In this document: positions 52,399 through 64,000 of the stretch, one piece after another
Position numbering within the stretch: the stretch's first letter is position 1
Layout of the letters: each line of letters starts with the position of its first letter
DNA from: an uncultured Flavobacteriaceae bacterium
Lineage (GTDB): Bacteria; Bacteroidota; Bacteroidia; Flavobacteriales; Flavobacteriaceae
Reading direction: 5' to 3'
NCBI GenBank assembly: GCA_947500525.1
Contig: CANMSH010000004.1
Location: 188,783 to 252,782 of the forward strand
DNA: 64,000 bases
Made by a program: the position numbers and the translations under genes
The notes under the pieces: generated by a model
Told to the model about the DNA's origin: nothing
Seen by the model: only the letters and a program-made list of their open reading frames with translations
The model's database searches: none

Positions 52399-53811
52399 TT
52401 ATAACGACGACTCAATACTCTTTCTTTGAGGGTGTTTTTTAATAAAGACTTCCCAAATAAATACGCCATAAACAATCAAATATTCAAAGCCTATAATCCA
52501 TAAATTTTCTGTGTTATTAGAATTTGCATAAGCGAGATAGCTTATGATGATCATAAAACTCCAAACTAAAGGAAATTTATATCGTGTAAAAATCGACAAA
52601 ATTAAGAGCATTGCAATATACCAAGGATGTACTGTTGTTGCAGTAAAGTAATAAAATGTTAATACAAATAACATGGCTGACATGAACTGAATAGGAGTCT
52701 TATTTTTTCTGAAAAAAGTAATTAACAGGGTCACAGACAGTACAACAATAGGAATTATTTTTCCGATGACAGCTATTTCATTATAACCTCTAAATGTATA
52801 TCCATACGCTCTGGCTAGATAATAAATACTAGCGTTGAATTCAAAATTACGAAACCATAAACCCACTGTTTCGGTGTAATTGTCTATAAATTTAGCCGAT
52901 AGAAAAGGTAAAAATAATAAGACAATTACCGCAATAGTGATAAAATAAAACCCTGATAATCTGAGGAGTCTCGAAAACAAAGTATTTAATTCAGCCCTTG
53001 AAGTTTTAAAAGGATGTTCTTTTTGTATAAAGTATTGAAAGAATACCGGTAGAAATATTAGTGGGATTAATTTTACAGAGACCGATAGTGCAAATAGAAT
53101 TGCAGCGGCTATCCATTTTCCTTTTTGGAGCAAATACATGGCCCAGATTAAAAAGAAAATCATAACAGCTTCAAAATGTAAATTCCCAGTTAATTCTATG
53201 ATGATAAATGGATTTAATAAATACCAAAAAATATGATGTACCGGAAGCTTTAAACTAGAGAGTAACTTTTTGCCAAAATAGAGAATACCGATATCTGCAA
53301 GTATAATAATTGCTCGCATAATGACCACCGAACCCAAAATACTTTTACCAGCGAAAAGACCCGCAATGACAAAACATAATTGATTAATAGGAGGGTAGTT
53401 GGTGTAATGCCCAGCGCTTAAAGGACCCATTCCTGCGTGTAGCTCTAGTGCTTGATGAACCGGAAATTGATTGTTGTTTATAAAAAAGTCTACTGTAGTA
53501 AGGTATGGATTAAAACCTGCTAGTATCATACGTCCATCCCAAATAAAACGATAAAAATCTTGAGATAGATTAGGAATTGAGAATAAAAATAATATCCGAA
53601 ATAAAATGGATAGAAAGACTAAAAGTTTAAAATCATGTTTAACCGATTGTAGCAGTTTATAAAATAAAAAGAACAAACCTCCATAAAGAAGTATGAGTTT
53701 TGTGTAATCTGTTCTTTGTAAATCGTAAGCAAAAGATACATAGAAAAAAACACTAATTACTGCAAATAAAATGGGCAGTTGGATGCTTTTTAAATACGTA
53801 AGATTTGGCAT
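52399..53811 (-). CDS. polytopic GT-C-like membrane glycosyltransferase (DUF2029/GT87-like)
   Basis: 470 aa, more than 10 hydrophobic helices. First extracytoplasmic loop NLSQDFYRFIWDGR carries the conserved acidic residue typical of polyprenol-phosphate-sugar-dependent GT-C enzymes. Family assignment is tentative. Confidence 0.55.
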   Translation of the reverse strand: MPNLTYLKSIQLPILFAVISVFFYVSFAYDLQRTDYTKLILLYGGLFFLFYKLLQSVKHDFKLLVFLSILFRILFLFSIPNLSQDFYRFIWDGRMILAGFNPYLTTVDFFINNNQFPVHQALELHAGMGPLSAGHYTNYPPINQLCFVIAGLFAGKSILGSVVIMRAIIILADIGILYFGKKLLSSLKLPVHHIFWYLLNPFIIIELTGNLHFEAVMIFFLIWAMYLLQKGKWIAAAILFALSVSVKLIPLIFLPVFFQYFIQKEHPFKTSRAELNTLFSRLLRLSGFYFITIAVIVLLFLPFLSAKFIDNYTETVGLWFRNFEFNASIYYLARAYGYTFRGYNEIAVIGKIIPIVVLSVTLLITFFRKNKTPIQFMSAMLFVLTFYYFTATTVHPWYIAMLLILSIFTRYKFPLVWSFMIIISYLAYANSNNTENLWIIGFEYLIVYGVFIWEVFIKKHPQRKSIESSL

Positions 53812-53873
53812 TGGTTTATATGATATCTACAATGGATTCTGTGAACTTCTAATTTAGACAAAAAAGTTCTTTA

Positions 53874-55364
53874 TTAGGCCTTTGAGGTTAAGGATTTAAA
53901 GAAGACATACCCAAACCCAAGAAAAAGCATTAAATGAAAAGGAAATAGCGCAAAGTCTCCACCTTTATCACCTACGATAAATGCACTGTACATACCGAAA
54001 GCGAAATACAACGCAAGTAAACCTTCAAAAATTACATTTAAAGAGATTTTTTTACGCAAATATTTATTGCCTTTCCAGCTGTCTGTTAAGGAACTAATAT
54101 TAAATTTAGGAGTACGTACAAATTCACTCTTCTTACCAAAATGACCTTCTAAAACGGCGATTGAATTGTGCAATGAAAAGCCCATGGCAATAGAGAAAAA
54201 GGTAAAAAACATACCTATATATTGTATAAAACTTTTAAAACCACCGCCATATTTACTTTTATACATGAACCAATAACAGATAAAGAAGATAATAGTGCTG
54301 ATCACAAAAAAGCTCATTACAAAAAAGTAAACTTTTAGATGCGTGTATTCATTTTTAATATAGAGCATTGGTATACTTAACACCCCTACGATCAATACAT
54401 TTAAAAACATAGTACTATTTAATAAATGTAGAATACCATGTACTTTAGTTTTAGATGAAATACTCTTATTTTTTAAGACTCTCCAAAGCATTTTTTTGAA
54501 ATTTTCTGCTCCTCCTTTATTCCATCTAAATTGTTGAGTCCTAGCGGCACTTATTACCACAGGTAGTTCGGCCGGAGTTTCAACATCTTCGAGATATTTG
54601 AACTTCCAATTTTTTAATTGTGCTCGATAACTAAGATCTAAATCTTCGGTTAAGGTATCACCCTCCCAATTACCGGCGTCTATGATGCATTGTTTTCTCC
54701 AAACTCCAGCGGTTCCATTAAAATTTATAAAATGCCCTTTGCTGTTGCGCCCAACTTGTTCGAGAGTGAAATGAGCGTCTAAGGCGAAAGCTTGAATTCT
54801 TGTAAGTATAGAATAATCTCTATTAATATGACCCCAACGCGTTTGAACCACTCCAATTTTTTCATCTTTAAAATAAGGGATTGTATTTTTCAACCAATCT
54901 TTTTTGGGAAGAAAATCAGCATCGAATATTGCAATGAATTCTCCTTTTGCAATTTCTAACCCTTCTTTTAGTGCTCCTGCTTTAAAACCTTGGCGATTTT
55001 CTCTACAAATATGAACAATGTCTAGGCCTTGTTCTTTTAGTATTTGTATTTGCTTGGAGGTTGTTTTAACTGTTTCATCAGTAGAGTCATCTAAAACCTG
55101 AATTTCTAAGCGATCATGAGGATAGTCAATTTTTGCAATATTATCTAACAAACGTTGCATGACATACATTTCGTTAAACACAGGTAATTGTATAGTTACA
55201 TAAGGTACTTCGTCTTTTTTAGACAAATCAAATTTTAATGAATCATCATTTTTTTTCTGAGCAGCGATATAGTTAAATAATAAATTCAATTGTGCTAATG
55301 CATACATAAAAATAAGTACGAGCGCGACCGAATAAACACCTATAATTATACTTTCTAGAACCAT
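53874..55364 (-). CDS. processive family 2 glycosyltransferase, CslA/CslC-like beta-glycan synthase
   Basis: 496 aa. N-terminal TM and a C-terminal TM bundle. IQLPVFNE, QVLDDSTD, FDADF, VQTRW, FNGTAGVWR, TEDLDLSYR, LKNWKF and QQFRW (aa 277-281) follow the plant CslA/CslC motif order. No PilZ domain. Confidence 0.85.
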   Translation of the reverse strand: MVLESIIIGVYSVALVLIFMYALAQLNLLFNYIAAQKKNDDSLKFDLSKKDEVPYVTIQLPVFNEMYVMQRLLDNIAKIDYPHDRLEIQVLDDSTDETVKTTSKQIQILKEQGLDIVHICRENRQGFKAGALKEGLEIAKGEFIAIFDADFLPKKDWLKNTIPYFKDEKIGVVQTRWGHINRDYSILTRIQAFALDAHFTLEQVGRNSKGHFINFNGTAGVWRKQCIIDAGNWEGDTLTEDLDLSYRAQLKNWKFKYLEDVETPAELPVVISAARTQQFRWNKGGAENFKKMLWRVLKNKSISSKTKVHGILHLLNSTMFLNVLIVGVLSIPMLYIKNEYTHLKVYFFVMSFFVISTIIFFICYWFMYKSKYGGGFKSFIQYIGMFFTFFSIAMGFSLHNSIAVLEGHFGKKSEFVRTPKFNISSLTDSWKGNKYLRKKISLNVIFEGLLALYFAFGMYSAFIVGDKGGDFALFPFHLMLFLGFGYVFFKSLTSKA

Positions 55365-56066
55365 TTATTTAAAACTATATTTAAAAATCCAACCTAAAAT
55401 TTTTACTCCTGCCATAACCGATCCTTTTACAGTTCCGGATACTTTTGAAACACCAATTCTATTTCTATATTTCATGGGTATTTCTGTGTAGGATAATTTT
55501 TGTTTTAATGCTTTTAATTGCATTTCTACAGTCCAACCATAGGTTTTATCTTCCATGTTTAGACTAAGTAGCTTATCATACTTAATTGCTCTAAAAGGGC
55601 CTAAATCAGTAAAGCTAGCGCGAAAAAATAATTTCATCAAAAAAGTAGCTAACCAATTCCCAAAAATTTGCTGAGGAGTCATAGAACCCTGTTCACGTAG
55701 TCGTTTAACTCTCGCTCCAATTACAAAATCAAGGCCTTGATTTTCGATCGGCGCTACAAGTTCAGTTAATTGCTCGGGATAATCAGAGTAATCACCATCT
55801 AAAAAAACGATGATGTCGGGCTTTTTCTCGACAACTTTTGATTGATGTGCAATATATTCCATTCCCTTTAGACAAGCATATCCGTAGCCTTTTCTCGATT
55901 CTTGCAAAACAGTAGCTCCCGCCTTTTTCGCACGTTGTTCTGTTGCATCCGTTGAATTATTGCTAACAACAATAATTTCATCTACACGTGCTGGGATGTC
56001 ACGAACGACATTAGCGATAGAATCTTCTTCATTATAAGCAGGAATAATAACTTTAATTATGCTCAT
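55365..56066 (-). CDS. family 2 glycosyltransferase, Dpm1/DPG-synthase-like (polyprenol-phosphate sugar synthase candidate)
   Basis: 233 aa. IIPAYNEE, VVSNNSTD, FLDGDYSD (DxD). Soluble single-domain GT-A. Its stop codon directly abuts the start codon of the synthase gene. Confidence 0.75.
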   Translation of the reverse strand: MSIIKVIIPAYNEEDSIANVVRDIPARVDEIIVVSNNSTDATEQRAKKAGATVLQESRKGYGYACLKGMEYIAHQSKVVEKKPDIIVFLDGDYSDYPEQLTELVAPIENQGLDFVIGARVKRLREQGSMTPQQIFGNWLATFLMKLFFRASFTDLGPFRAIKYDKLLSLNMEDKTYGWTVEMQLKALKQKLSYTEIPMKYRNRIGVSKVSGTVKGSVMAGVKILGWIFKYSFK

Positions 56067-56539
56067 TTGAGATCTGACATTTTATTTTCCTTTTTGAATG
56101 ACTTTAAATCGGTCCATTCTTTCAGTTTGTTGTCGTTCTTATATTTTTCGGCTTTCACAAGTTTTTTATTCTTATAAACCAAACAGAAACCATTTTTTTT
56201 GTTGTTTTGAAACTGACATTTTTTGTCTATAACGCCATTTGTATTAAAAAACACCCACCATTTAGATTTTACACCGTTTTCAAAATGTCCAGCTTCTTTC
56301 TTCTTTCCATTTAGGGCGTAAAAATACCAGTATTTTACGGGTTTTCCAATAGAATAGCGACCTTCCTTTTTTAGTTTTCCGTTAGGATAATAAAACTTCC
56401 AATAGTTCACTTTAACGGAGTTTTGTACCCAGCCTTCTGATTTTAAAATACCATTATTGAAATACGTTTTCTGATATTTTTTCTGCCCAGCAATAGATAG
56501 GCTGAACAAGATAAATAAAAGAAGGAGCTTATTTTGCAT
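56063..56539 (-). CDS. secreted MORN-variant repeat protein (YwqK-like)
   Basis: 158 aa. Signal peptide MQNKLLLLFILFSLSIAG. Repeated NG.LK.EG......G.W.(F/Y)Y units. Confidence 0.6.
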   Translation of the reverse strand: MQNKLLLLFILFSLSIAGQKKYQKTYFNNGILKSEGWVQNSVKVNYWKFYYPNGKLKKEGRYSIGKPVKYWYFYALNGKKKEAGHFENGVKSKWWVFFNTNGVIDKKCQFQNNKKNGFCLVYKNKKLVKAEKYKNDNKLKEWTDLKSFKKENKMSDLK

Positions 56540-58160
56540 TATTCTGATTTACCAACGCCATCAAGTCTACATCATTACCTAATAATATTTCAGTAGGATT
56601 GATACGTCCTGCTTCAGGACCATTTTCTAACTTCAATACGCCTCGAGGACAAACCGCAGAACAAACACCGCAACCCACACAACTCGATCGAATAATATTT
56701 TCTCCTTTTTGAGCATATGCCCTTACATCAATACCTTGCTCACAATATGTTGAACAATTTCCACATGAAATACATTGCCCACCATTGGTTGTAATTCTAA
56801 AACGTGACTTAAAACGCTGTACTAGACCTAAATACGCGGCTAAAGGACATCCGAAGCGACACCATACTCGATTTCCGAAGATTGGATAAAAACCAGTACC
56901 TATAACACCTGCAAACCATGCCCCAATTAAGAAGCTATACGTATCTTTAATCCATTGAGATTTTATGCCTAAAAATGATTCAGTTCCAGTGAAATAGCAA
57001 TATAAGGTTACCAGAGTCATAATTAAAGAAAAAACAAGCACAGAGTGTATCAACCATCTTTCAAGTTTCCATGAAACTAATTTTTTACTCGAATGCTGTC
57101 TGTAAGGATCTCCTAAAGTTTCTGCGAGACCACCACAACCACAAACCCACGAACAATACCATCTTTTTCCGAAAAAGTACACCATTACTGGTACGATGAT
57201 TAAGGTGAGTACAATTCCCCATACCAAAATAAAGAGGCCTATAGCTCCACTATCTCTAAGACTATCTAAATTCCATTCAAAGAAAAAATCATAGTCTAAT
57301 GGGAATGCATTTTTAAAGTCATAACCAGGCATATTTAAACTTGCCATAATCTCAGGAATTAAAAACGCAAATACAATTTGAAAGAAAAGTACTGACGTAG
57401 TTCGTATGACTTGATATTTATTATGTCTGTATTTAATGTACATACGTACTGCCATAACAATCATAATAATACAGTATAAGAAACCATATACAAACCATTG
57501 GCTGGCTTCTCCACCATTTAAAAATTTGCTTATTGGATCTAAAATGTAGGTCCAATTTACTGCATAATCAGGCATGAAATATAGCACTAAATAAAAAGTA
57601 ACCAGATATACAAGTACTAACCAAGCAATCCAGCCTCTATTTGTACTTGATTCATGATAGATACCATTATTCTTAATACCCGCTTTACCTAAAAGCACTA
57701 TGTTAGGAAGTATAAACAATAAGGCTCCTATAATTGCGAGCCCAAAGGTTAACCACCATAAAAGACCGGCATTTTCTTTAACAAAACCAGCGCCAGCTTT
57801 TTTGGCAACTTCATAACTTAAGGTATGAGATTTTCTGTAGATCTTGTATTGAAATTGTTCTCCCTTTTTGTCCCAATTTTTCTCAGCATCATATTTTGCA
57901 ATAAGAGCGTCATAATGATCATTGGAAGATTGAAATGCATCACGAACGCGACTTGAAAATTGAAAAATGTTTAACTCTTCTTCGGTAACAGCTGCTTTTG
58001 TAAGCGCGTCTTTAATAATTTCACTTTTATACCCTTTTGATTCAATAAAGGAAGCCACTTCTGACTCGGACAAGCTAAATGACCCTAAAAATAAACTTCC
58101 GGTAAAAATGCCCAGTCCAACAAGGAAAAGAACCAAACCTATATTTTGTATTGCTTTCAT
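56529..58160 (-). CDS. polytopic membrane 4Fe-4S protein, NapH/NosR-like
   Basis: 543 aa. CSWVCGCGG and CRFGCP (Cx3C(P/G) motifs as in NapH/NosR). Two ferredoxin motifs CISCGNCSTYC and CVGCGVCSAVCP at the C-terminus. Confidence 0.8.
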   Translation of the reverse strand: MKAIQNIGLVLFLVGLGIFTGSLFLGSFSLSESEVASFIESKGYKSEIIKDALTKAAVTEEELNIFQFSSRVRDAFQSSNDHYDALIAKYDAEKNWDKKGEQFQYKIYRKSHTLSYEVAKKAGAGFVKENAGLLWWLTFGLAIIGALLFILPNIVLLGKAGIKNNGIYHESSTNRGWIAWLVLVYLVTFYLVLYFMPDYAVNWTYILDPISKFLNGGEASQWFVYGFLYCIIMIVMAVRMYIKYRHNKYQVIRTTSVLFFQIVFAFLIPEIMASLNMPGYDFKNAFPLDYDFFFEWNLDSLRDSGAIGLFILVWGIVLTLIIVPVMVYFFGKRWYCSWVCGCGGLAETLGDPYRQHSSKKLVSWKLERWLIHSVLVFSLIMTLVTLYCYFTGTESFLGIKSQWIKDTYSFLIGAWFAGVIGTGFYPIFGNRVWCRFGCPLAAYLGLVQRFKSRFRITTNGGQCISCGNCSTYCEQGIDVRAYAQKGENIIRSSCVGCGVCSAVCPRGVLKLENGPEAGRINPTEILLGNDVDLMALVNQNNAK

Positions 58161-58183
58161 TTTTATATCTTATTAAATTTGGT

Positions 58184-59521
58184 TTATGCAAAAATGCGTT
58201 TCCAACTCTTCTTTTTTAATTGAATTGCTGTTCCGTTTTCTTCATTGAATTTGGCTACAATTTCTTTTTCATATAATTTGTAGAATTCAGGATCGAAGTT
58301 TGCGTCGGCTAAATGTTCTAATACATGTTCAACTGATCTTTTCTCTGTCAATACTTTATCAAAGAATTGATGACGCATTCTGATTCCAAATGTATTGATC
58401 CCAATAAAAGCACGGGTCTTTTTATCATAATTGATATGGATACATTTGGTGCCATCTTCATGTTCCCAATAGAATCGAGATTCATTTTCTTTAGGTTGTG
58501 CCCAAACCCAACCATATGTTTGATATTCAATATCAATGAATTTCGCAGAGTTAAACCAATGTCCTGGTTTGTATTCAATTCTGTTACCACAAATGGTTTG
58601 GGCCACAGTTTCTCCCATCATACGCCCGGTATACCAAACGGCTTCAATTGGACGTCTACTTCCAATAGCCTCATGCTGTTCGGCGCAATCACCAATAGCA
58701 TAAATGTCTTGAATATTTGTTTCTAAGAAACGATTTACTTTAACACCCCTGCCTATTTCAATATCGCTGTCTTTTATAAAATCAACATTCGGAGAAACTC
58801 CAGCCGTTAGTCCAACTACATCACAACGAATCTCTTCTCCGGTTTCTGCAATTACAACGGATGTTGCTTTTCCGTCGCCGTCACTTTTTATTTCTTTTAA
58901 GTTGACACCTAAACGTAAATCAATACCACTGCGCAAAATTTCTCTATTAATCATGGCCGACTCGCCATCAGGTAAAACCCCATTCCAAAAACTATCTTCA
59001 CGAACTAAAAAAGTTACCGGAATATGTCTTGAGTGGAGCATCTCTGCTAATTCAATACCAATAAGACCACCACCAACTATAACTGCACGTTTACATACCT
59101 TATTATTGGGAGCATACTTTTCAAGATTATCTAAATCTTGTTTATGATACATGCCCATCACACCTTTCAGATCTTGTCCAGGCCAGCCAAACTTATTTGG
59201 CTTAGAACCAGTTGCAATAATTAGTTTATCATAAGCTAATGTATCATTATCAGCAAAAACAAGGTTCTTGTTTTTACTATCGATATTCTTCACATAGCCC
59301 TTTTTTAATTCGATACGATTTTTTTTCCAAAACCAATTTTCATAGGGTTGCGTATGTTCAAATTTCATATGCCCCATGTATACATACATAAGAGCTGTTC
59401 TTGAGAAAAAATAATCAGTTTCTGCAGATACAATGGTAATTTTTTTATCAGAAAGTTTACGTATGTGCCTTGCAGCCGTAACACCAGAAATACCATTTCC
59501 AATTATAACAATGTGTTCCAT
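58184..59521 (-). CDS. NAD(P)H/FAD-dependent pyridine nucleotide-disulfide-type oxidoreductase
   Basis: 445 aa. IVIIGNGISG (FAD), AVIVGGGLIGIE (NAD(P)H), YAIGDCAE. About 100-aa C-terminal extension of unknown role. Confidence 0.85.
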   Translation of the reverse strand: MEHIVIIGNGISGVTAARHIRKLSDKKITIVSAETDYFFSRTALMYVYMGHMKFEHTQPYENWFWKKNRIELKKGYVKNIDSKNKNLVFADNDTLAYDKLIIATGSKPNKFGWPGQDLKGVMGMYHKQDLDNLEKYAPNNKVCKRAVIVGGGLIGIELAEMLHSRHIPVTFLVREDSFWNGVLPDGESAMINREILRSGIDLRLGVNLKEIKSDGDGKATSVVIAETGEEIRCDVVGLTAGVSPNVDFIKDSDIEIGRGVKVNRFLETNIQDIYAIGDCAEQHEAIGSRRPIEAVWYTGRMMGETVAQTICGNRIEYKPGHWFNSAKFIDIEYQTYGWVWAQPKENESRFYWEHEDGTKCIHINYDKKTRAFIGINTFGIRMRHQFFDKVLTEKRSVEHVLEHLADANFDPEFYKLYEKEIVAKFNEENGTAIQLKKKSWKRIFA

Positions 59522-59602
59522 AATTTTGAAGGTTGTTGGACATTAAGTCGAAGTAAAATGCAAATACTTAACTCATGTAATAATTTAGAATTATTTTAAA
59601 TA

Positions 59603-59693
59603 ATAAATTGAAATAAAATTTAAAAATATGTAAGGTAACGTTTTTTTTACTGACTTAGTTGGTAATATTTTTCATCGTCGATAAATTGAAATA
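59603..59693 (+). repeat. two exact copies of ATAAATTGAAATA in the divergent promoter region
   Basis: Copies at 59603-59615 and 59681-59693 (78-nt spacing). A third TTGAAAAT follows at 59694-59701. Confidence 0.6.
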
Positions 59694-59756
59694 TTGAAAA
59701 TAGTCTTTGTGAAGGTAGCTTGCTATTTTACTACAACTGTTAAATAAAATTGGTAT

Positions 59757-59764
59757 TAATTTTG
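59757..59764 (+). promoter_or_regulatory. candidate Bacteroidota -7 promoter element for the DUF547 operon
   Basis: TAATTTTG matches TAnnTTTG, 73 nt before ATG 59837. Confidence 0.3.
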
Positions 59765-59836
59765 CAGTATTGGTTTAGAAGAAAGCGATCACTAGAATAA
59801 AGCTAGTAATGATAAAACAAATTAAAACTGAATAAG

Positions 59837-60550
59837 ATGTTAAACAAATTAAAAATCATAATTCTAATAGTGAGTTTCAATGTGGGATTTGCTCAAAGTC
59901 CCAGTACTTTTTTCACCAAATCTGATGCTTTTTTTAAAGCAAATGTTGCCAATGGTAAGGTAAATTACGCTGGAATTCATAAAAATCAAGATAAGTTAAA
60001 CGAACTATTAACTTTAGCGAATACCGTGAAAGTTTCTAAGAGTGATGCTAAAAATTATCAGGCTTTTTGGATTAATGCGTATAACATTTCTGTTATCAAA
60101 GGAATTATTGATAATTATCCTATAAAATCACCGTTAGATAAGGCAGGTTTTTTTGATAAGACTACTTATAAACTAGGAGGTAAAACTATTACTCTTAATG
60201 ATATTGAACATAAAGTGCTAAGAGCTCAATTTAATGACGCACGTTTTCATTTTGTACTTGTTTGTGGTGCAATTGGGTGCCCTCCATTAATTAATAAAGC
60301 ATATTTGCCTGCAACTTTAGAAAGTCAGTTAGAGAAGCAAACGAAAATTGCACTAAATGGAACTTTTTTACAGGTAAATTCGAAAAAGAAAAGAGTTGCA
60401 GGATCAGAAATTTTAAAATGGTATAAAGAAGATTTTACCATGAACGGAACAACTGAAATCGATTTTATAAATAAATATAGAACAGAAAAAATCCCTAGTA
60501 ATTTCAAGTTGAGTTACTTCACATACAACTGGAATTTAAACAAACAATAA
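59837..60550 (+). CDS. secreted DUF547-like protein
   Basis: 237 aa. Signal peptide. AFWINAYN and FHFVLVCGAIGCPPL match the DUF547 core (paired Cys followed by Pro) as I recall it. Confidence 0.6.
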   Translation: MLNKLKIIILIVSFNVGFAQSPSTFFTKSDAFFKANVANGKVNYAGIHKNQDKLNELLTLANTVKVSKSDAKNYQAFWINAYNISVIKGIIDNYPIKSPLDKAGFFDKTTYKLGGKTITLNDIEHKVLRAQFNDARFHFVLVCGAIGCPPLINKAYLPATLESQLEKQTKIALNGTFLQVNSKKKRVAGSEILKWYKEDFTMNGTTEIDFINKYRTEKIPSNFKLSYFTYNWNLNKQ

Positions 60551-60576
60551 AAAACTAACAACATAAAATAATTATA

Positions 60577-61470
60577 ATGAAAAAAATTATAGGATTATTA
60601 GTCCTTACATTCGTCACGTTCTCAAGTTTTTCACAAGAAGGAAATGATACTCAAGATACACCTCAAAAAAGTAATATTCAAACATATACGCCTTCAAAAT
60701 TATTGAACAAAGGACAATGGGATATTAAATGGTTTAACAATTTATATACTCAAACGAAAGACCTGTTTGGAACCAATGGAAGAAAACGTACTATTCCAAG
60801 AGAAACGTTTTTCACTTCAACAGTAGATATTTTTACCGGTGTTTCTGAAAATAGCTCTTTCAATGTAGGATTACTATTAGAATTTAGATCGAATGTGATA
60901 GGTGGTAGAGATGCCTTAGATGTTTTTAGCTTTGATGGTGAGAATGCAACAGCACGCTCAGGTTTTACTTCTTTTGCTCCGGCTGTGAAATTTAACCCTC
61001 TTAAGAATGTGTCGAATTTTACTGTGCAAACGGCTTTTCATATTCCATTAGTTGATAATGAAGTAGAGAATGGCGTATTTCTAGATCAAAAAGGATTTAT
61101 TTTTCAAAACAGATTTTTCTATGATTATACATTTCCTGGCGATAAATGGCAACTTTTTACAGAGTTGAATACTGAATATAACTTTGGAAAGAAAGAGAAT
61201 AGTTTTGCAAACAATAGTTTGAATTTAACACCTGGTGTATTTTTAAGCTATTTTCCGAGTCAGAAATTTACTGTTTTAGGTTTGGTTCAACATTCGCAAC
61301 GAATTGATTTAGGAAACGATTTTAGTCAAGATTTTACTGCAGTGGGCGGCGGCGCTAAATACCAACTCAATAAAACACTTAATATTGAAGCTTTATATAC
61401 GAATTTTGTTCGTGGTAATGATACGGGCTTAGGTCAGACCTTCAATATTGGTTTGAGAGCACTTTTTTAG
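60577..61470 (+). CDS. putative outer-membrane beta-barrel protein
   Basis: 297 aa. Signal peptide, alternating hydrophobic beta-strand pattern, C-terminal ..FNIGLRALF ending in Phe. Confidence 0.5.
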   Translation: MKKIIGLLVLTFVTFSSFSQEGNDTQDTPQKSNIQTYTPSKLLNKGQWDIKWFNNLYTQTKDLFGTNGRKRTIPRETFFTSTVDIFTGVSENSSFNVGLLLEFRSNVIGGRDALDVFSFDGENATARSGFTSFAPAVKFNPLKNVSNFTVQTAFHIPLVDNEVENGVFLDQKGFIFQNRFFYDYTFPGDKWQLFTELNTEYNFGKKENSFANNSLNLTPGVFLSYFPSQKFTVLGLVQHSQRIDLGNDFSQDFTAVGGGAKYQLNKTLNIEALYTNFVRGNDTGLGQTFNIGLRALF

Positions 61471-61554
61471 GAGTAAAGAAAATAATACCAGTTAAATTTT
61501 AAATCTAACTGGTATTATTCTGATAAAATTCTTTACTTGAGCTAAAAATATAAA

Positions 61555-62559
61555 ATGAGAGTTTTACGACTTATATTATTTTTAGTTCTATTTCAATCTT
61601 GTTCAGGACAACAACCAAAAATTAATGGTCTAAGTTTAGTGTCTTCTCGCGATGCCATAAATCAAACTCACATAGATCCCATCGTAAATGTTAACGCCAA
61701 TTATGTGTCTATAATTCCTTTCGGATTTATTAAAGATTTGACGCAGCCAGAAGTTCGTTTCAATACAGATAGACAATGGTTTGGGGAGACTAAAGATGGT
61801 GTGACTCAATACGCAGGTGAACTTCGTAAGAAAAATGTTAAAATCATGTTGAAACCACAAATATGGGTCTGGCGAGGACAGTATACAGGTTTCATCGAAA
61901 TGACTACAGAAGCCGATTGGAAAACTTTAGAAAAAACATATGCCGCGTATATTTTGGCCTATGCAGAGTTGGCGACCGAATTGAAGGCAGATATTTATTG
62001 TATCGGAACCGAATTGGAAAAGTTTGTAAAGAATCGTCCAGAATTTTGGAACGATTTGATTGAAAAAGTAAAGACAATTTACAAAGGTAGAATTACCTAC
62101 GCTGCCAATTGGGATGAATTTAAACATACTCCTTTTTGGAAAGAATTAGATTTTATAGGTGTGAACGCTTATTTTCCTGTAGACACTACTAAAACACCAA
62201 CCGTTGAAAGTTGTAAACTTGGATGGAAACCTCATAAACAAATTATGAAGGATATTTCAAAAAAGTATAAACGACCAATAGTATTTACAGAATTTGGTTA
62301 TCGAAGTGTTGATTACACAGCAAAGGAACCCTGGAAGTCTGATAGGAGCATGACCTCTGTAAATTTGCAGGGACAAGCAAATGCCACACAAGCAATTTTT
62401 GAAGAATTTTGGGATGAAGATTGGTTTGGAGGTGGATTTTTATGGAAATGGTTTCATAATCATGAAAGCTCAGGAGGATCAAAAAACTCCAGATTTACTC
62501 CTCAAAATAAACCGGCAGAAGCTGTAATTAAAAAACAGTATAAAACCACGATCAATTGA
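61555..62559 (+). CDS. lipoprotein glycoside hydrolase, clan GH-A TIM barrel (GH113-like, tentative)
   Basis: 334 aa. Lipobox LFQSCSG. Candidate acid/base CIGTELEKF (E153/E155) and nucleophile IVFTEFGYRS (E246), with spacing typical of clan GH-A. Family number not verified. Confidence 0.6.
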   Translation: MRVLRLILFLVLFQSCSGQQPKINGLSLVSSRDAINQTHIDPIVNVNANYVSIIPFGFIKDLTQPEVRFNTDRQWFGETKDGVTQYAGELRKKNVKIMLKPQIWVWRGQYTGFIEMTTEADWKTLEKTYAAYILAYAELATELKADIYCIGTELEKFVKNRPEFWNDLIEKVKTIYKGRITYAANWDEFKHTPFWKELDFIGVNAYFPVDTTKTPTVESCKLGWKPHKQIMKDISKKYKRPIVFTEFGYRSVDYTAKEPWKSDRSMTSVNLQGQANATQAIFEEFWDEDWFGGGFLWKWFHNHESSGGSKNSRFTPQNKPAEAVIKKQYKTTIN

Positions 62560-63287
62560 GAAAAATAACATTTATATCAATCGTTTTGTTTCTAGTATCG
62601 TGTGCCGGCGATGATAGTACTAACGACACCATTCTGTCGAATTATGTATTGGGTAAAGCAATTGAGGAAGGTGGTGTTATTGCTTGTGCAGGAAGTTCTG
62701 AAAATAGTTCGAAAGTGCTCGTTTTTCAATATCCTGAAAATGGTGCTCGAAATACTAAACTGTATGAAACCAACACAGTCGATATAGATGAAAAGGACTT
62801 TTCAAATTATAAAAAGGTATCGATCACAGGGAGTCCTTTCTTTAATGGATATCTTGAGCAGTTTGATCTAGATTTAACCCAAGAAAAATGGATCATTGTA
62901 ACACATGAATTAGACGGCGAAATAAAAATATCGAACCCTATTAGAACAAAACAAAATACGAAGGCTTCTAAGTGGAGTCAAAGTGCTGTTGAGATTACCC
63001 AGGAAGAACCACTAATGCCTAGGTTTACATGGGAAAATAATCAGTTTGGTGATAATGCTATTTATTTTCAAATAGTATCAGACCTTCAAAACAATTTATT
63101 ATCCGGTACCTATACTTTTGAAAATACGTTTCAATACTATAATACCTCGAATGTGGTGTTGAATATAACAATAGATATACCCCCGATTTTAAGAAAAGGT
63201 GCCGAGTATAATTTTACCTTGATGGATGTAAGTGAAGATAATTGGGTGAATTTATTTATCTTGAATAAAAAATTCTTGGTTGAATGA
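62556..63287 (+). CDS. lipoprotein of unknown function
   Basis: 243 aa. TTG start overlapping the previous stop (TTGA). Lipobox LFLVSCAGDDS. Confidence 0.6.
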   Translation: MRKITFISIVLFLVSCAGDDSTNDTILSNYVLGKAIEEGGVIACAGSSENSSKVLVFQYPENGARNTKLYETNTVDIDEKDFSNYKKVSITGSPFFNGYLEQFDLDLTQEKWIIVTHELDGEIKISNPIRTKQNTKASKWSQSAVEITQEEPLMPRFTWENNQFGDNAIYFQIVSDLQNNLLSGTYTFENTFQYYNTSNVVLNITIDIPPILRKGAEYNFTLMDVSEDNWVNLFILNKKFLVE

Positions 63288-64000
63288 ACAAGGTTGTCAT
63301 TTTCTTACTTATTTTTCTCTTTGCTGGTATAAATGTGTTTTCGCAAGACAATGTTGTAGGTGACTTAAAGGTACGTGGAAACAAAAAAATTAAAACTTCA
63401 TTCATAAAGAAACTTACAAAAGTAACCGTTGGCAGTAAGCTAGACTCCTTAATTTTAGAAGAAGATATTAGAAGGCTAAAACGCTTGCCATCTGTGTCAC
63501 ATGCTTATTATCAGGTGTTTCCTTCTGAAGAGAATACGTACAATGTGTTTTATTGGGTTGAAGAAAATTTTACGATTATACCATTGGCAAATGTATACAC
63601 CACAAATGATGATGAATTTGCATTTAGGATAGGTGCCTATGAATATAATTTATTAGGTCGAAATATGACGTTTGGAGGCTTTTTTCAACGTGATATTTAT
63701 AATTCTTATGGTATTAATTTTAGAGCACCCAATTTGTTTAGTCGACACTTTGGATTGGCACTGAATCATCAAAATTTGACTACAGAAGAACCTGTGTTTT
63801 TAAGCGCAGCTACTGCCGATTATAGATATAATAATAAGTCGTATGAGTTGCTAGGTTTGTTTCAGATAAATTTCAATCACAGATTAGAGTTGGGTCTTAA
63901 TTATTTTACCGAAGATTATCGATATTTGTCAGGTGCAACTGATCCAGGCATTCCACTTAATTTAAATGTAAAGAAATTATTATACAAATTTGTCTATGAT
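63284..64000 (+). CDS. POTRA-domain outer-membrane protein (BamA/ShlB superfamily), N-terminal part; continues past window
   Basis: Not in the ORF track (open to the window end). ATG 63284 overlaps the previous stop (ATGA). MNKVVIFLLIFLFAGINVFSQ signal, then a POTRA-like LKVRGNKKIKTSFIKKLTKVTVGSKLDSLILEEDIRRLKRLPSVSHAYYQV. 239 codons with no stop. Confidence 0.6.
   Translation, partial: MNKVVIFLLIFLFAGINVFSQDNVVGDLKVRGNKKIKTSFIKKLTKVTVGSKLDSLILEEDIRRLKRLPSVSHAYYQVFPSEENTYNVFYWVEENFTIIPLANVYTTNDDEFAFRIGAYEYNLLGRNMTFGGFFQRDIYNSYGINFRAPNLFSRHFGLALNHQNLTTEEPVFLSAATADYRYNNKSYELLGLFQINFNHRLELGLNYFTEDYRYLSGATDPGIPLNLNVKKLLYKFVYD

Follow-up and report, generated by a model that had tools for sequence, protein, structure and literature searches.

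The window, which is the whole stretch of 64,000 nucleotides that was analysed, contains a real, uncharacterised gene cluster that is widespread across marine Flavobacteriaceae and is centred on a cellulose-synthase-like enzyme. Judging from the sequences of related loci, it and a set of arsenosugar biosynthesis genes are the two halves of a larger supercluster. We tentatively read the region as a pathway, conserved among flavobacteria, that makes an envelope glycan, and we put the chance that this reading is correct slightly below even.

Gene content of the divergent arrays

A check of coordinates and translations located all eleven ORFs in two tight divergent arrays, with intergenic gaps of −11 to +84 bp inside each array. 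The gene content, the two-operon layout and the exact length of the 315-bp spacer were as described in the initial annotation. The features are as follows:

52399–53811, minus strand, GT-C glycosyltransferase, 470 aa
53874–55364, minus strand, GT2 synthase, 496 aa
55365–56066, minus strand, small GT2, 233 aa
56063–56539, minus strand, MORN protein, 158 aa
56529–58160, minus strand, membrane Fe-S protein, 543 aa
58184–59521, minus strand, FAD oxidoreductase, 445 aa
59522–59836, no strand, divergent intergenic region, 315 bp, AT-rich (GC 23%)
59837–60550, plus strand, DUF547 protein, 237 aa
60577–61470, plus strand, beta-barrel, 297 aa
61555–62559, plus strand, GH113 hydrolase, 334 aa
62556–63287, plus strand, lipoprotein, 243 aa
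63284 to beyond 64000, plus strand, POTRA protein, truncated at the edge of the window (~420–422 aa when complete)

Because each ORF has many conserved orthologues, sequence comparison identifies all eleven as genuine genes and not chance ORFs. One Bacteroidetes-type −7 box (TAATTTTG) was found at 59757, 73 nt upstream of the DUF547 start, and the 315-bp region gave no Rfam match. Profile searches with Pfam and NCBIfam confirmed the domain calls made previously. As had also been noted, these searches found no TPR and no c-di-GMP receptor or co-polymerase (PilZ, PgaD, Alg44, PelD) in any of the eleven proteins. Pfam detected no SusC/SusD or other PUL genes. We found no published description of the cluster, in agreement with the earlier statement that no described system of this composition was known.

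The synthase carries the motifs DDS92, DAD148, TED239, QQFRW277 and FVRTPKF415. In an alignment of 30 synthase-family sequences, D92, D93, E240, D241, Q277, Q278 and R280 were invariant, and D148, D150 and W281 were nearly so. FVRTPKF (415–421) forms an inter-helix loop in which F415, R417, T418, P419 and K420 were invariant; it departs from the FxVTxK of the gating loop. In Foldseek searches, the AF2 model (pLDDT 93.4) matched BcsA best (E 1.7e-20, TMq 0.69 over ~500 columns; all BcsA matches, TMq 0.64–0.69), followed by HAS, CesA, chitin synthase and Cgs. BcsA was also matched by phmmer against the PDB (2e-18). The protein thus has the GT-A domain with D, DxD, TED and QxxRW of processive GT2 beta-glycan synthases, and the fold matches of the model agree with a catalytic domain packed, as in those enzymes, against interface helices and a bundle of transmembrane helices. 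The motif set and the predicted fold support the earlier description as a processive-GT2-type synthase.

Compared with the Bcs system, both GT2s are membrane-embedded and share D/DxD/TED/QxxRW and an FxxTxK-type loop, BcsA being the best match in both sequence and fold, and both loci encode a periplasmic glycoside hydrolase alongside the synthase. However, the cluster has no PilZ, BcsB or BcsC-type TPR plus 16-stranded porin, and its synthase has ~5–6 transmembrane helices in 496 aa, whereas BcsA has 8 helices in >700 aa. The hydrolases belong to GH113 and GH8, respectively, and the polyprenyl-phosphate-sugar branch and redox pair are extra in the cluster.

The label 'CslA/CslC-like' is tentative; the only pointers to it are the database name of an 84%-identical orthologue, P0061, which bears the source name 'Glucomannan 4-beta-mannosyltransferase', and a resemblance in motif. 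Plant CslA/CslC, which make Golgi mannan, glucomannan and xyloglucan backbones, are similar in size (~500 aa) and in having one N-terminal and several C-terminal helices; they carry QQHRW where the cluster synthase has QQFRW. The orthologue is named after CslA activity, and a mannanase-family partner would suit a mannan product. In contrast to the plant enzymes, the cluster synthase is a bacterial inner-membrane enzyme, operon-encoded with partners missing in plants. Of the 150 best family representatives, 30 had their cluster names looked up, and no plant protein was among these. The prokaryotic source of CslA/C has been left open in the literature (PMC3091534, PMC4023592).

The hydrolase matched 267 of the 289 positions of the Pfam GH113 profile and scored 146.6 bits, far above the cut-off of 27, which bears out and sharpens the previous assignment to a clan GH-A lipoprotein hydrolase. 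Its PDB matches were without exception endo-beta-1,4-mannanases (best 1e-24). When it was compared with 4cd6, CIGTEL and FTEFG aligned with the mannanase segments 'cvgcEm' and 'ffmEvg'; we take their glutamates to be the GH113 acid/base and nucleophile. Both motifs (CIGTELe, FTE.GYRS) were conserved in 51 orthologues. On these sequence features, the hydrolase is a member of GH113, a beta-mannanase family.

The gene for the small GT2 lies directly against the synthase gene, with 0 bp between them, and its protein has no predicted transmembrane segment. The sole Pfam family this GT2 passed was the generic Glycos_transf_2 (82.8 bits). Its best NCBIfam match, AglJ (112 bits), was below the cut-off of 325, as were matches to the dolichyl-phosphate hexose transferase and PpgS models. 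It is a probable soluble Dpm1/AglJ-like polyprenyl-phosphate glycosyltransferase. With 29 bits for ALG6_ALG8 and 27.4 bits for PIG-M, the GT-C protein exceeded the respective Pfam cut-offs of 25 and 23.4, and it showed weak matches to MptA and MptB in NCBIfam and to GPI mannosyltransferase 1 in the PDB (E 0.002). Its orthologues carry Pfam MptA_B_family. It is polytopic, with ~10 predicted hydrophobic segments, and its acidic first outer loop, 'PnLSqDfyRFiWDG', was conserved in 60 orthologues, as expected of the GT-C family. It is a GT-C fold membrane glycosyltransferase that probably depends on a polyprenyl-phosphate-sugar donor.

The 297-aa barrel had no Pfam match. Its AF2 model, of moderate quality (pLDDT 74), contained 12 strands plus one short helix at the N terminus, and its best Foldseek matches were 4rl8, a COG4313 channel (TMq 0.65), and FapF, which are channels for hydrophobic molecules or polypeptides and not polysaccharide porins. 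Orthologues were 75–88% identical and annotated as 'hypothetical' or 'transporter'. The model points to a 12-stranded COG4313/FapF-type channel and not a BcsC/PgaA/AlgE-type porin. A 16–18-stranded TPR-linked export porin does not fit the 12 strands of the model or the lack of a detected TPR. The locus therefore bears only a weak analogy to exopolysaccharide secretion systems already known: of the proposed resemblance to Bcs, Pga and Alg, the BcsA-like synthase stood and the outer-membrane part did not.

The POTRA protein (Pfam POTRA, 24.7 bits) is probably a single-POTRA Omp85-type outer-membrane protein; a full-length orthologue gave a weak BamA match (1.6e-07), and close relatives have two tandem copies of the gene. 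The 243-aa lipoprotein, whose leader ends ...LVSC, had no Pfam or NCBIfam match, was poorly conserved and was found in only 8 related loci.

The FAD protein matched Pfam Pyr_redox_2 (178 bits). In the PDB, 3lxd ranked first (5e-37), and the next matches were reductases of ferredoxin, rubredoxin and putidaredoxin. The cysteines of the FAD protein are at 143, 233, 279, 311 and 360, and none occupies the Nox/CoADR redox position. Its sequence identifies it as an NAD(P)H/FAD oxidoreductase of the ferredoxin-reductase type. The Fe-S protein has a 4Fe-4S dicluster domain in addition to Fer4_5, for which it scored 30.3 bits against a cut-off of 22, and contains CSWVCG336 (CX3CG), CRFGCP434 (CX3CP) and two CX2CX2CX3C motifs. 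It scored 63.7 bits against NapH/MauN TIGR02163, below the cut-off of 213. Residues 160–520 were strongly conserved, and an additional N-terminal region of ~300 aa contains more helices. It appears to be a polytopic membrane protein with a NapH-type core. The secreted MORN protein fell just under the cut-off for MORN_2 (29.4 bits; cut-off 29.6) and has a hydrophobic N-terminal leader as read from the sequence. The DUF547 protein, also secreted, matched Pfam DUF547 at 95.7 bits, and its motif 'R.HF...C....CP' (C143, C148) was invariant in 52 sequences spanning both paralogues; the second paralogue lies within the arsenosugar operon of relatives.

Synteny and the arsenosugar neighbourhood

Synteny was counted in 69 synthase-anchored related loci whose flanking sequence was long enough. 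In 66 of these the small GT2 adjoined the synthase; the FAD/Fe-S pair was present in 57–58, the GT-C in 56 and the GH113 hydrolase in 50. The MORN protein (29 loci), the barrel (29) and the POTRA protein (27) were each found in fewer than half. The set was syntenic across dozens of Flavobacteriaceae genera, and the initial annotation thereby withstood the synteny check that it had itself named as able to refute it. Beyond this family, only the small GT2, synthase and GT-C were kept. This triad is the only core conserved across Bacteroidota, and the GH113, barrel, POTRA and redox genes were missing from some triad-bearing loci. The genes that flank the cluster in the window were not conserved among relatives.

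The synthase was the most conserved cluster gene, with a median identity of 76% over 80 loci across genera. This value is unusually high for an exopolysaccharide enzyme and counts against a polymer product.

In relatives, the triad adjoins a curated arsenosugar set of ArsS (433 bits; cut-off 300), ArsM (572; cut-off 400), PNP, TIGR04282 (215; cut-off 134) and TIGR04283 (228; cut-off 182), and a rhodanese-family gene was above the cut-off for NF045521 (model name 'rhoda_near_glyco'). At least one gene of this set was present in 42 of the 69 synthase-anchored loci. Conversely, 22 of 33 ArsS-anchored metagenome loci contained supercluster genes (manual count). In some contigs, the arsenosugar set and the triad form one tightly spaced 8-gene operon; L088, for example, has eight co-directional genes from ArsS to GT-C with gaps of ≤63 bp. 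The adjacency survived inversions (L123, L125) and was also seen at 45–50% synthase identity (L083, L085). ArsS, ArsM, TIGR04282 and TIGR04283 were all absent from positions 1–64000 of the window. In a close relative, the arsenosugar operon begins immediately after the second POTRA gene, and by comparison with relatives the set would start ~2.5 kb beyond the window end. With this set next door and a second DUF547 paralogue within it, it may be arsenosugar chemistry, and not polysaccharide export, that is served by the DUF547, barrel and redox genes.

Proposed envelope glycan and alternative readings

Several observations argue for an envelope-glycan pathway: the synteny counts, the changing flanks, the tight gene spacing, and the linkage of the GH113 gene to the synthase through rearrangements (L066; L123, L125). 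Fusions to FG-GAP or beta-propeller domains, which are frequent in carbohydrate-active extracytoplasmic proteins, occur in part of the synthase family and also favour an envelope glycan. As the solved GH113 matches are all beta-1,4-mannanases and the predicted synthase fold is BcsA-like, a beta-mannan-like chain is our best guess for the product. Two further points favour the envelope-glycan pathway: the enzymes matched by the GT-C protein have polyprenyl-phosphate-mannose or -glucose as their donor, and the orthologue P0061 bears the glucomannan mannosyltransferase name given above. Against a mannan, we know of no bacterial beta-1,4-mannan.

The type of barrel and the patchy accessory genes count against an envelope-glycan polymer, as does the wider synthase family. 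A homologue, P0240, is 38% identical to the synthase and has the same motif set, with IED for TED and DSD for DAD; the FVRTPKF loop is also retained. It lies directly upstream of a serine palmitoyltransferase gene (658 bits; equivalog cut-off 640) in an apparent operon that also encodes a GNAT-like protein and an SDR. The motifs therefore cannot separate polymer synthases from lipid glycosyltransferases, and the family probably contains the latter too. For this reason, the 'exopolysaccharide' product proposed in the initial annotation is not established. Pfam GT21, the ceramide glucosyltransferase family, matched the synthase above the cut-off and other family members more strongly, and fatty-acid-hydroxylase (FA_hydroxylase) genes recur near synthase-family members. 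These findings, together with the COG4313-like barrel and the very high synthase conservation, make it possible, although we consider it unlikely, that the cluster is a glycolipid pathway without a polymer. The GT2 would then be a membrane beta-glycosyltransferase with diacylglycerol, ceramide or some other lipid as its acceptor, the small GT2 and GT-C would add one or a few sugars at the outer face, and the barrel would let a hydrophobic product or substrate pass through the outer membrane. Cyanobacterial MgdA (Sll1377) provides a parallel, since it and the GT21 enzymes share the GT2/GT21 catalytic domain between transmembrane helices and act at the membrane, and the N- and C-terminal helices of MgdA are required for activity (PMC3916417, PMC3276260). 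However, MgdA and GT21 enzymes add a single sugar to lipid and have no linked GH113, GT-C or outer-membrane proteins. It is hard to see what a conserved gene of the endo-mannanase family would do for a head group of one or two sugars, the best full-length structural matches of the synthase were all polymer synthases, and the serine palmitoyltransferase link was seen at one locus, in another subfamily without the small GT2 and GT-C.

The arsenosugar linkage described above suggests a reading that overlaps with the envelope glycan and that we consider improbable, a little more so than the glycolipid, in which the triad would supply the late steps so far missing from arsenosugar metabolism. ArsM and ArsS would form 5'-deoxy-5'-dimethylarsinoyl-adenosine, and PNP would free a ribose-1-phosphate analogue. 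A DUF2064 protein would activate this analogue, the Dpm1-like GT2 would load it onto polyprenyl phosphate, and the GT-C would transfer it in the periplasm to a glycan or lipid made by the synthase, while the redox or binding of arsenic would fall to the redox pair and to DUF547 with its cysteine pair. Mycobacteria offer a partial precedent. Their lipomannan/LAM pathway (Ppm1 plus MptA/MptB) likewise pairs a Dpm1-like GT2 with MptA/B-type GT-C enzymes, and the adjoining purine-nucleoside/MTA-type phosphorylase and SAM-derived 5-deoxy-pentose pathway of the cluster's relatives parallel the MTX-P-C50 route. In M. tuberculosis, MTX-P-C50 is formed and methylthioxylose is transferred to the mannan of lipoarabinomannan (MtxS/MtxT capping; PMC8780516). 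The phylum differs, however, as does the backbone enzyme (a GT2 synthase compared with GT4 and then GT-C enzymes), and the pentose would bear arsenic in the cluster's relatives but sulfur in mycobacteria. The window itself has no arsenosugar genes, and L037, L067, L070 and L073 keep the triad with no arsenosugar gene within 10 kb. Moreover, co-location could stem from shared regulation, such as phosphate or arsenate stress, and the NCBIfam names for Bacteroidota are themselves inferences. To our knowledge, no arsenic-bearing glycan has been described, which also counts against this reading. Finally, it is very improbable that the genes have no common function and are neighbours by descent only, with GH113 used for uptake of external algal or plant mannan. 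GH113 is usually counted as a catabolic CAZyme in flavobacterial genome surveys (PMC4891872), and some genomes do without parts of the cluster, but PUL genes including SusC/SusD are absent, the genes abut or overlap, and the linkage held across many genera and rearrangements while the flanks changed.

For the envelope-glycan pathway, gene content, folds, motifs and synteny are what was observed, and from these we infer the product, the processivity of the synthase, the topology of action and the role of every partner. At the cytoplasmic face, the BcsA-fold GT2 would build a beta-linked hexose chain, most likely beta-1,4-mannan or glucomannan-like and either free or begun on a lipid primer, and thread it through its own membrane domain. 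The small GT2 would load a sugar onto polyprenyl phosphate, and the GT-C, working at the periplasmic face, would lengthen or decorate the chain with this lipid-linked sugar. The GH113 lipoprotein would be the cognate hydrolase that trims or releases the chain, as BcsZ does for cellulose. Optional components at the outer membrane would be the 12-stranded barrel and one or more Omp85-like proteins. The NAD(P)H-FAD reductase and NapH-like Fe-S protein would act as an electron-input pair, which, together with DUF547, is probably common to the cluster and the adjoining arsenosugar operon.

Gene map and conservation

The cluster consists of eleven genes in two divergent arrays, and the ORF map and two-array layout proposed in the initial annotation agreed exactly with our analysis.

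Genes of the two arrays (window positions, strand, product)
58184-59521, minus: FAD protein, an NAD(P)H/FAD oxidoreductase
56529-58160, minus: NapH-like membrane Fe-S protein, forming the redox pair with the FAD protein
56063-56539, minus: MORN protein
55365-56066, minus: small GT2
53874-55364, minus: synthase, a BcsA-fold membrane GT2
52399-53811, minus: GT-C
59837-60550, plus: DUF547 protein
60577-61470, plus: barrel
61555-62559, plus: hydrolase (GH113)
62556-63287, plus: lipoprotein
63284 to past the window end, plus: POTRA protein

Intergene gaps ranged from -11 to +62 bp among the six minus-strand genes and from -4 to +84 bp among the five plus-strand genes. The 315-bp spacer between the arrays has a GC content of 23% and contains one Bacteroidetes-type -7 box (TAATTTTG), 73 nt 5' of the DUF547 start. 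A scan for sigma-70 promoters and terminators, which omits Bacteroidetes promoters, did not exceed shuffled sequences (41 promoter-like sites against 54 expected), and no RNA genes emerged when the entire window was screened with Rfam and for tRNAs. The genes located 3' of GT-C were unrelated, encoding a response regulator, a CoA-binding protein and an alanine symporter. Pfam and NCBIfam bore out all domain calls made earlier from sequence; the hydrolase, previously placed only in clan GH-A, was correctly classed and could be narrowed to GH113 (146.6 bits, Pfam). As also reported earlier, neither PilZ nor TPR domains were found in the eleven proteins by Pfam or NCBIfam.

A synteny scan that took a single genome from each species yielded 80 loci; with one exception, these came from Flavobacteriia or related Bacteroidota, including Flavobacterium, Zobellia, Tenacibaculum, Polaribacter, Winogradskyella, Aequorivita and Capnocytophaga. 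Genes were counted in the 69 loci whose sequence extended 9 kb or more upstream of the synthase. The small GT2 adjoined the synthase in 66 of these, and either redox gene was present in 58 (the FAD protein and the Fe-S protein in 57 each), GT-C in 56, GH113 in 50, the barrel and MORN in 29 each and POTRA in 27. In these loci, conservation did not extend to any of the genes that flank the cluster in the window. Median identities were 76% for the synthase, 74% for the small GT2, 73% for the FAD protein, 56% for GH113 and 50% for GT-C. GH113 remained close to the synthase even where gene order had changed (L066, L123, L125). The objection that the gene set might not be syntenic outside this genome, raised in the initial annotation, thus clearly fails (69 loci).

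Outside the Flavobacteriaceae, in Roseivirga and two other Bacteroidota lineages (45-50% synthase identity), only the small GT2, synthase and GT-C were retained; the redox pair was near or missing, and GH113 and the outer-membrane genes were not seen. An acidobacterial synthase homologue was solitary. A polyamine block encoding deoxyhypusine-synthase-like, arginase-family and arginine/ornithine decarboxylase proteins was found 3' of GT-C (L001:15519-18808), as well as in L011, L085 and approximately 17-19 other loci, even at 50% synthase identity. This block is absent from the window.

The synthase and its partner proteins

The 496-aa synthase carries the motifs DDS92, DAD148, TED239 and QQFRW277 and the loop FVRTPKF415, and has one hydrophobic helix at the N terminus and four to five at the C terminus. 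Its AlphaFold model, built from a 30-sequence alignment, had a pLDDT of 93.4. BcsA chains were its top PDB structure matches (E 1.7e-20, TMq 0.69, ~500 columns), followed by hyaluronan, plant cellulose and chitin synthases and cyclic glucan synthase, and BcsA was also its closest solved relative by sequence (2e-18). The family is large, with 1,621 clusters (50% identity) at E < 1e-30. Orthologues from other genera were 80-85% identical, and an exact look-up of the window sequence returned no matching record. The source name of one orthologue, a database label, was 'Glucomannan 4-beta-mannosyltransferase', which is the activity of plant CslA. Plant CslA/C and MgdA were sought among the relatives; the 30 named of the best 150 representatives were all prokaryotic or metagenomic.

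Other members of the family differed in architecture and neighbourhood. Three homologues of 900-1,400 aa (P0154, P0181, P0228) have C-terminal FG-GAP or PQQ-like beta-propeller fusions, and P0201 carries N-terminal leucine-rich repeats. In a Cyclobacteriaceae locus (L170:8001-12683), a 40%-identical homologue precedes a small GT2, 3' of which lie a family-less 451-aa protein on the opposite strand and then FA_hydroxylase, a second, differently ordered form of the synthase, small GT2 and hydroxylase neighbourhood.

The only solved relatives of the GH113 hydrolase in the PDB were endo-beta-1,4-mannanases (best 1e-24), and both catalytic glutamates were kept in 51 orthologues. GT-C scored above the Pfam cut-offs for ALG6/8 and PIG-M, with weak matches to MptA/MptB and GPI mannosyltransferase 1, and its orthologues are classed in the Pfam MptA_B_family. 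The ALG6/8, PIG-M and MptA/B families use polyprenyl-phosphate-hexose donors. The small GT2, predicted to be soluble, was nearest to AglJ and dolichyl-phosphate hexose transferases.

The flavoprotein resembles ferredoxin, rubredoxin and putidaredoxin reductases. Assignment as a CoA-disulfide reductase/NADH oxidase was ruled out, as the redox cysteine is missing. The Fe-S protein is built on a NapH-type core, with Fer4_5, two 4Fe-4S motifs and one each of CX3CG and CX3CP, preceded by an extra N-terminal ~300 aa with further helices. Pfam gave no family for the barrel. It was modelled with 12 strands (pLDDT 74), and the best fold matches of this model were a COG4313 channel (TMq 0.65) and FapF, not AlgE, PgaA or BcsC. 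An AlgE/PgaA/BcsC-like porin was thus ruled out by strand number and fold matches. The POTRA protein is a single-POTRA Omp85 relative of ~420 aa. Close relatives carry two such genes in tandem, each of 422 aa (L168:1-2182, L169:12721-15293), and the window ends 239 codons into the first copy.

The DUF547 protein contains an invariant cysteine pair (C143, C148). A second DUF547 paralogue occurs in relatives (L020, L169), and both paralogues have secretion leaders and the invariant pair within 'R.HF...C....CP'. The literature that we found mentions DUF547 only in plant co-expression lists, a number of which concern the secondary cell wall. Candidate acceptors for the redox pair are a di-iron hydroxylase, a radical SAM enzyme, arsenic redox steps and the periplasmic DUF547 cysteine pair.

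Arsenosugar genes beside the cluster in relatives

In relatives, the DNA beside the cluster encodes arsenosugar-set proteins above curated NCBIfam cut-offs, namely ArsS (433 bits, cut-off 300), ArsM (572, cut-off 400), TIGR04282, i.e. DUF2064 (215, cut-off 134), and TIGR04283 (228, cut-off 182). Also encoded there are a purine-nucleoside phosphorylase (PNP), a rhodanese of family NF045521 ('rhoda_near_glyco' in the model's own naming), again above cut-off, a fatty-acid hydroxylase resembling OlsE and the second DUF547 paralogue. At least one gene of this neighbourhood lay within 10 kb of the synthase in 42 of the 69 loci. In the reverse test, anchored on ArsS in metagenome contigs, synthase-cluster genes were present in 22 of the 33 ArsS loci with enough downstream DNA (hand count from the listing).

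One compact arrangement, L088, has the order ArsS, DUF2064, PNP, ArsM, a small MerT-like membrane protein, small GT2, synthase and GT-C. All gaps in this eight-gene array are at most 63 bp, so it is probably a single operon. Other genomes have GH113 or the entire plus-strand block inserted between the arsenosugar and synthase halves, or one of the two halves inverted. The arsenosugar set also adjoins the cluster in L004, L005, L031, L066, L083, L085 and L088-L167. The membrane protein between ArsM and the small GT2 (L088:13592-14017; ~140 aa, 'CCVAP' in the first helix) recurs in the compact operon type (L031, L080, L085, L091, L132, L136). It has weak similarity to MerT (E 0.009) and could be a carrier of a thiophilic metal or metalloid.

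No arsenosugar genes were found within the window itself. In the close relative L169, which has the window's orientation and an 88%-identical barrel, two POTRA genes close the plus-strand array, and head-on to them (L169:15290-20912) lies a complete arsenosugar set of ArsS, rhodanese, DUF2064, PNP, ArsM, FA_hydroxylase, DUF547 and a TIGR04283 GT2. By analogy with this layout, the arsenosugar operon would start ~2.5 kb past window position 64000. The initial annotation missed this link, the strongest contextual feature, because it lies just outside the window.

Possible products of the cluster

The cluster probably acts in glycan synthesis. Like synthase-dependent glycan systems, the locus combines a synthase with a matched-looking hydrolase. 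It lacks two features that define the Bcs, Pga, Alg and Pel secretion systems: a c-di-GMP receptor, and a TPR scaffold or porin of 16-18 strands. The pairing of a Dpm1-like GT2 with a GT-C follows a logic also seen in mycobacterial lipomannan/LAM assembly and Gtr-type periplasmic glycosylation. Of the earlier interpretation, an undescribed, conserved system probably engaged in glycan synthesis was retained, and an exopolysaccharide product and likeness to Bcs/Pga/Alg were not. That the composition is undescribed held up: literature on GH113/GT2, bacterial mannan synthases, DUF547, arsenosugars, MgdA and methylthioxylose yielded no description of the cluster and no matching paper.

From the observed gene content, fold and synteny, we infer, tentatively and at somewhat less than an even chance, an envelope glycan pathway, which is the best-supported reading. 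The BcsA-fold GT2 would build a beta-linked hexose chain, the small GT2 and GT-C would form a polyprenyl-phosphate-sugar branch extending or decorating it outside the inner membrane, and GH113 would be its cognate hydrolase. The family of the hydrolase and, independently of it, the CslA-type name of an orthologue both point towards a beta-1,4-mannan-like backbone. The main rival, which we consider somewhat unlikely, is that the synthase glycosylates a lipid. A 38%-identical homologue (L087:10001-14792) lies directly upstream of genes for a serine palmitoyltransferase (658 bits against an equivalog cut-off of 640), a GNAT-like protein and an SDR, a group that looks like a sphingolipid operon, suggesting that some family members glycosylate lipids. 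As this homologue keeps the motif set (TED to IED, DAD to DSD), the motifs cannot discriminate between polymer and lipid, and we dropped them as a criterion. The lipid rival also draws on a Pfam GT21 match to the synthase, fatty-acid hydroxylase genes recurring near the cluster, the resemblance of the modelled barrel to a channel for hydrophobic compounds, and synthase conservation like that of a core lipid enzyme. Cyanobacterial MgdA, a GT2 with flanking helices that acts as a lipid glucosyltransferase, provides a precedent (PMC3916417, PMC3276260). A lipid-primed polymer would reconcile the glycan and lipid readings.

Overlapping with the envelope glycan pathway is the unlikely alternative that the small GT2, synthase and GT-C complete arsenosugar metabolism. 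The phosphorylase, nucleotidyl-transferase-like protein, Dpm1-like GT2 and GT-C would parallel methylthioxylose logic: in mycobacteria, the polyprenyl-phosphate GT2 MtxS and the GT-C MtxT put a SAM-derived 5-deoxy-pentose on lipoarabinomannan mannoside caps (PMC8780516). We regard as quite improbable a two-part pathway with this cluster as its glycan half, in which a beta-mannan-like envelope chain or glycolipid receives 5-deoxy-5-dimethylarsinoyl-ribose via a polyprenyl-phosphate carrier and GT-C, the SAM-derived arsinoyl-ribose being supplied by the adjoining ArsM, ArsS, PNP and DUF2064 genes.

Papers on the plant superfamily leave the prokaryotic source of CslA/C/K unresolved (PMC3091534, PMC4023592). 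If the synthase product is a beta-mannan or glucomannan, the enzyme would be a candidate relative of the prokaryotic forerunner of plant CslA/CslC and, to our knowledge, the system would be the first of its kind in bacteria. How plant mannan synthases arose may become open to experiment through the cluster. We also know of no other case in which a NapH-like membrane Fe-S protein and a flavoprotein of the ferredoxin-reductase type are tied to the biosynthesis of a glycan or lipid.

Flavobacteriaceae have a major part in the marine carbon cycle, and this cluster is among their best-conserved envelope gene clusters, yet has no assigned product. Its wide distribution in ecologically important bacteria comes with a testable product hypothesis. 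If the arsenosugar link is functional, late steps of arsenosugar/arsenolipid formation would be testable in culturable bacteria. If the two-part pathway exists, it would fill the late arsenosugar steps and be an arsenic counterpart of mycobacterial methylthioxylose capping, and marine Flavobacteriia, which are abundant, would incorporate arsenic into a glycoconjugate at the cell surface.
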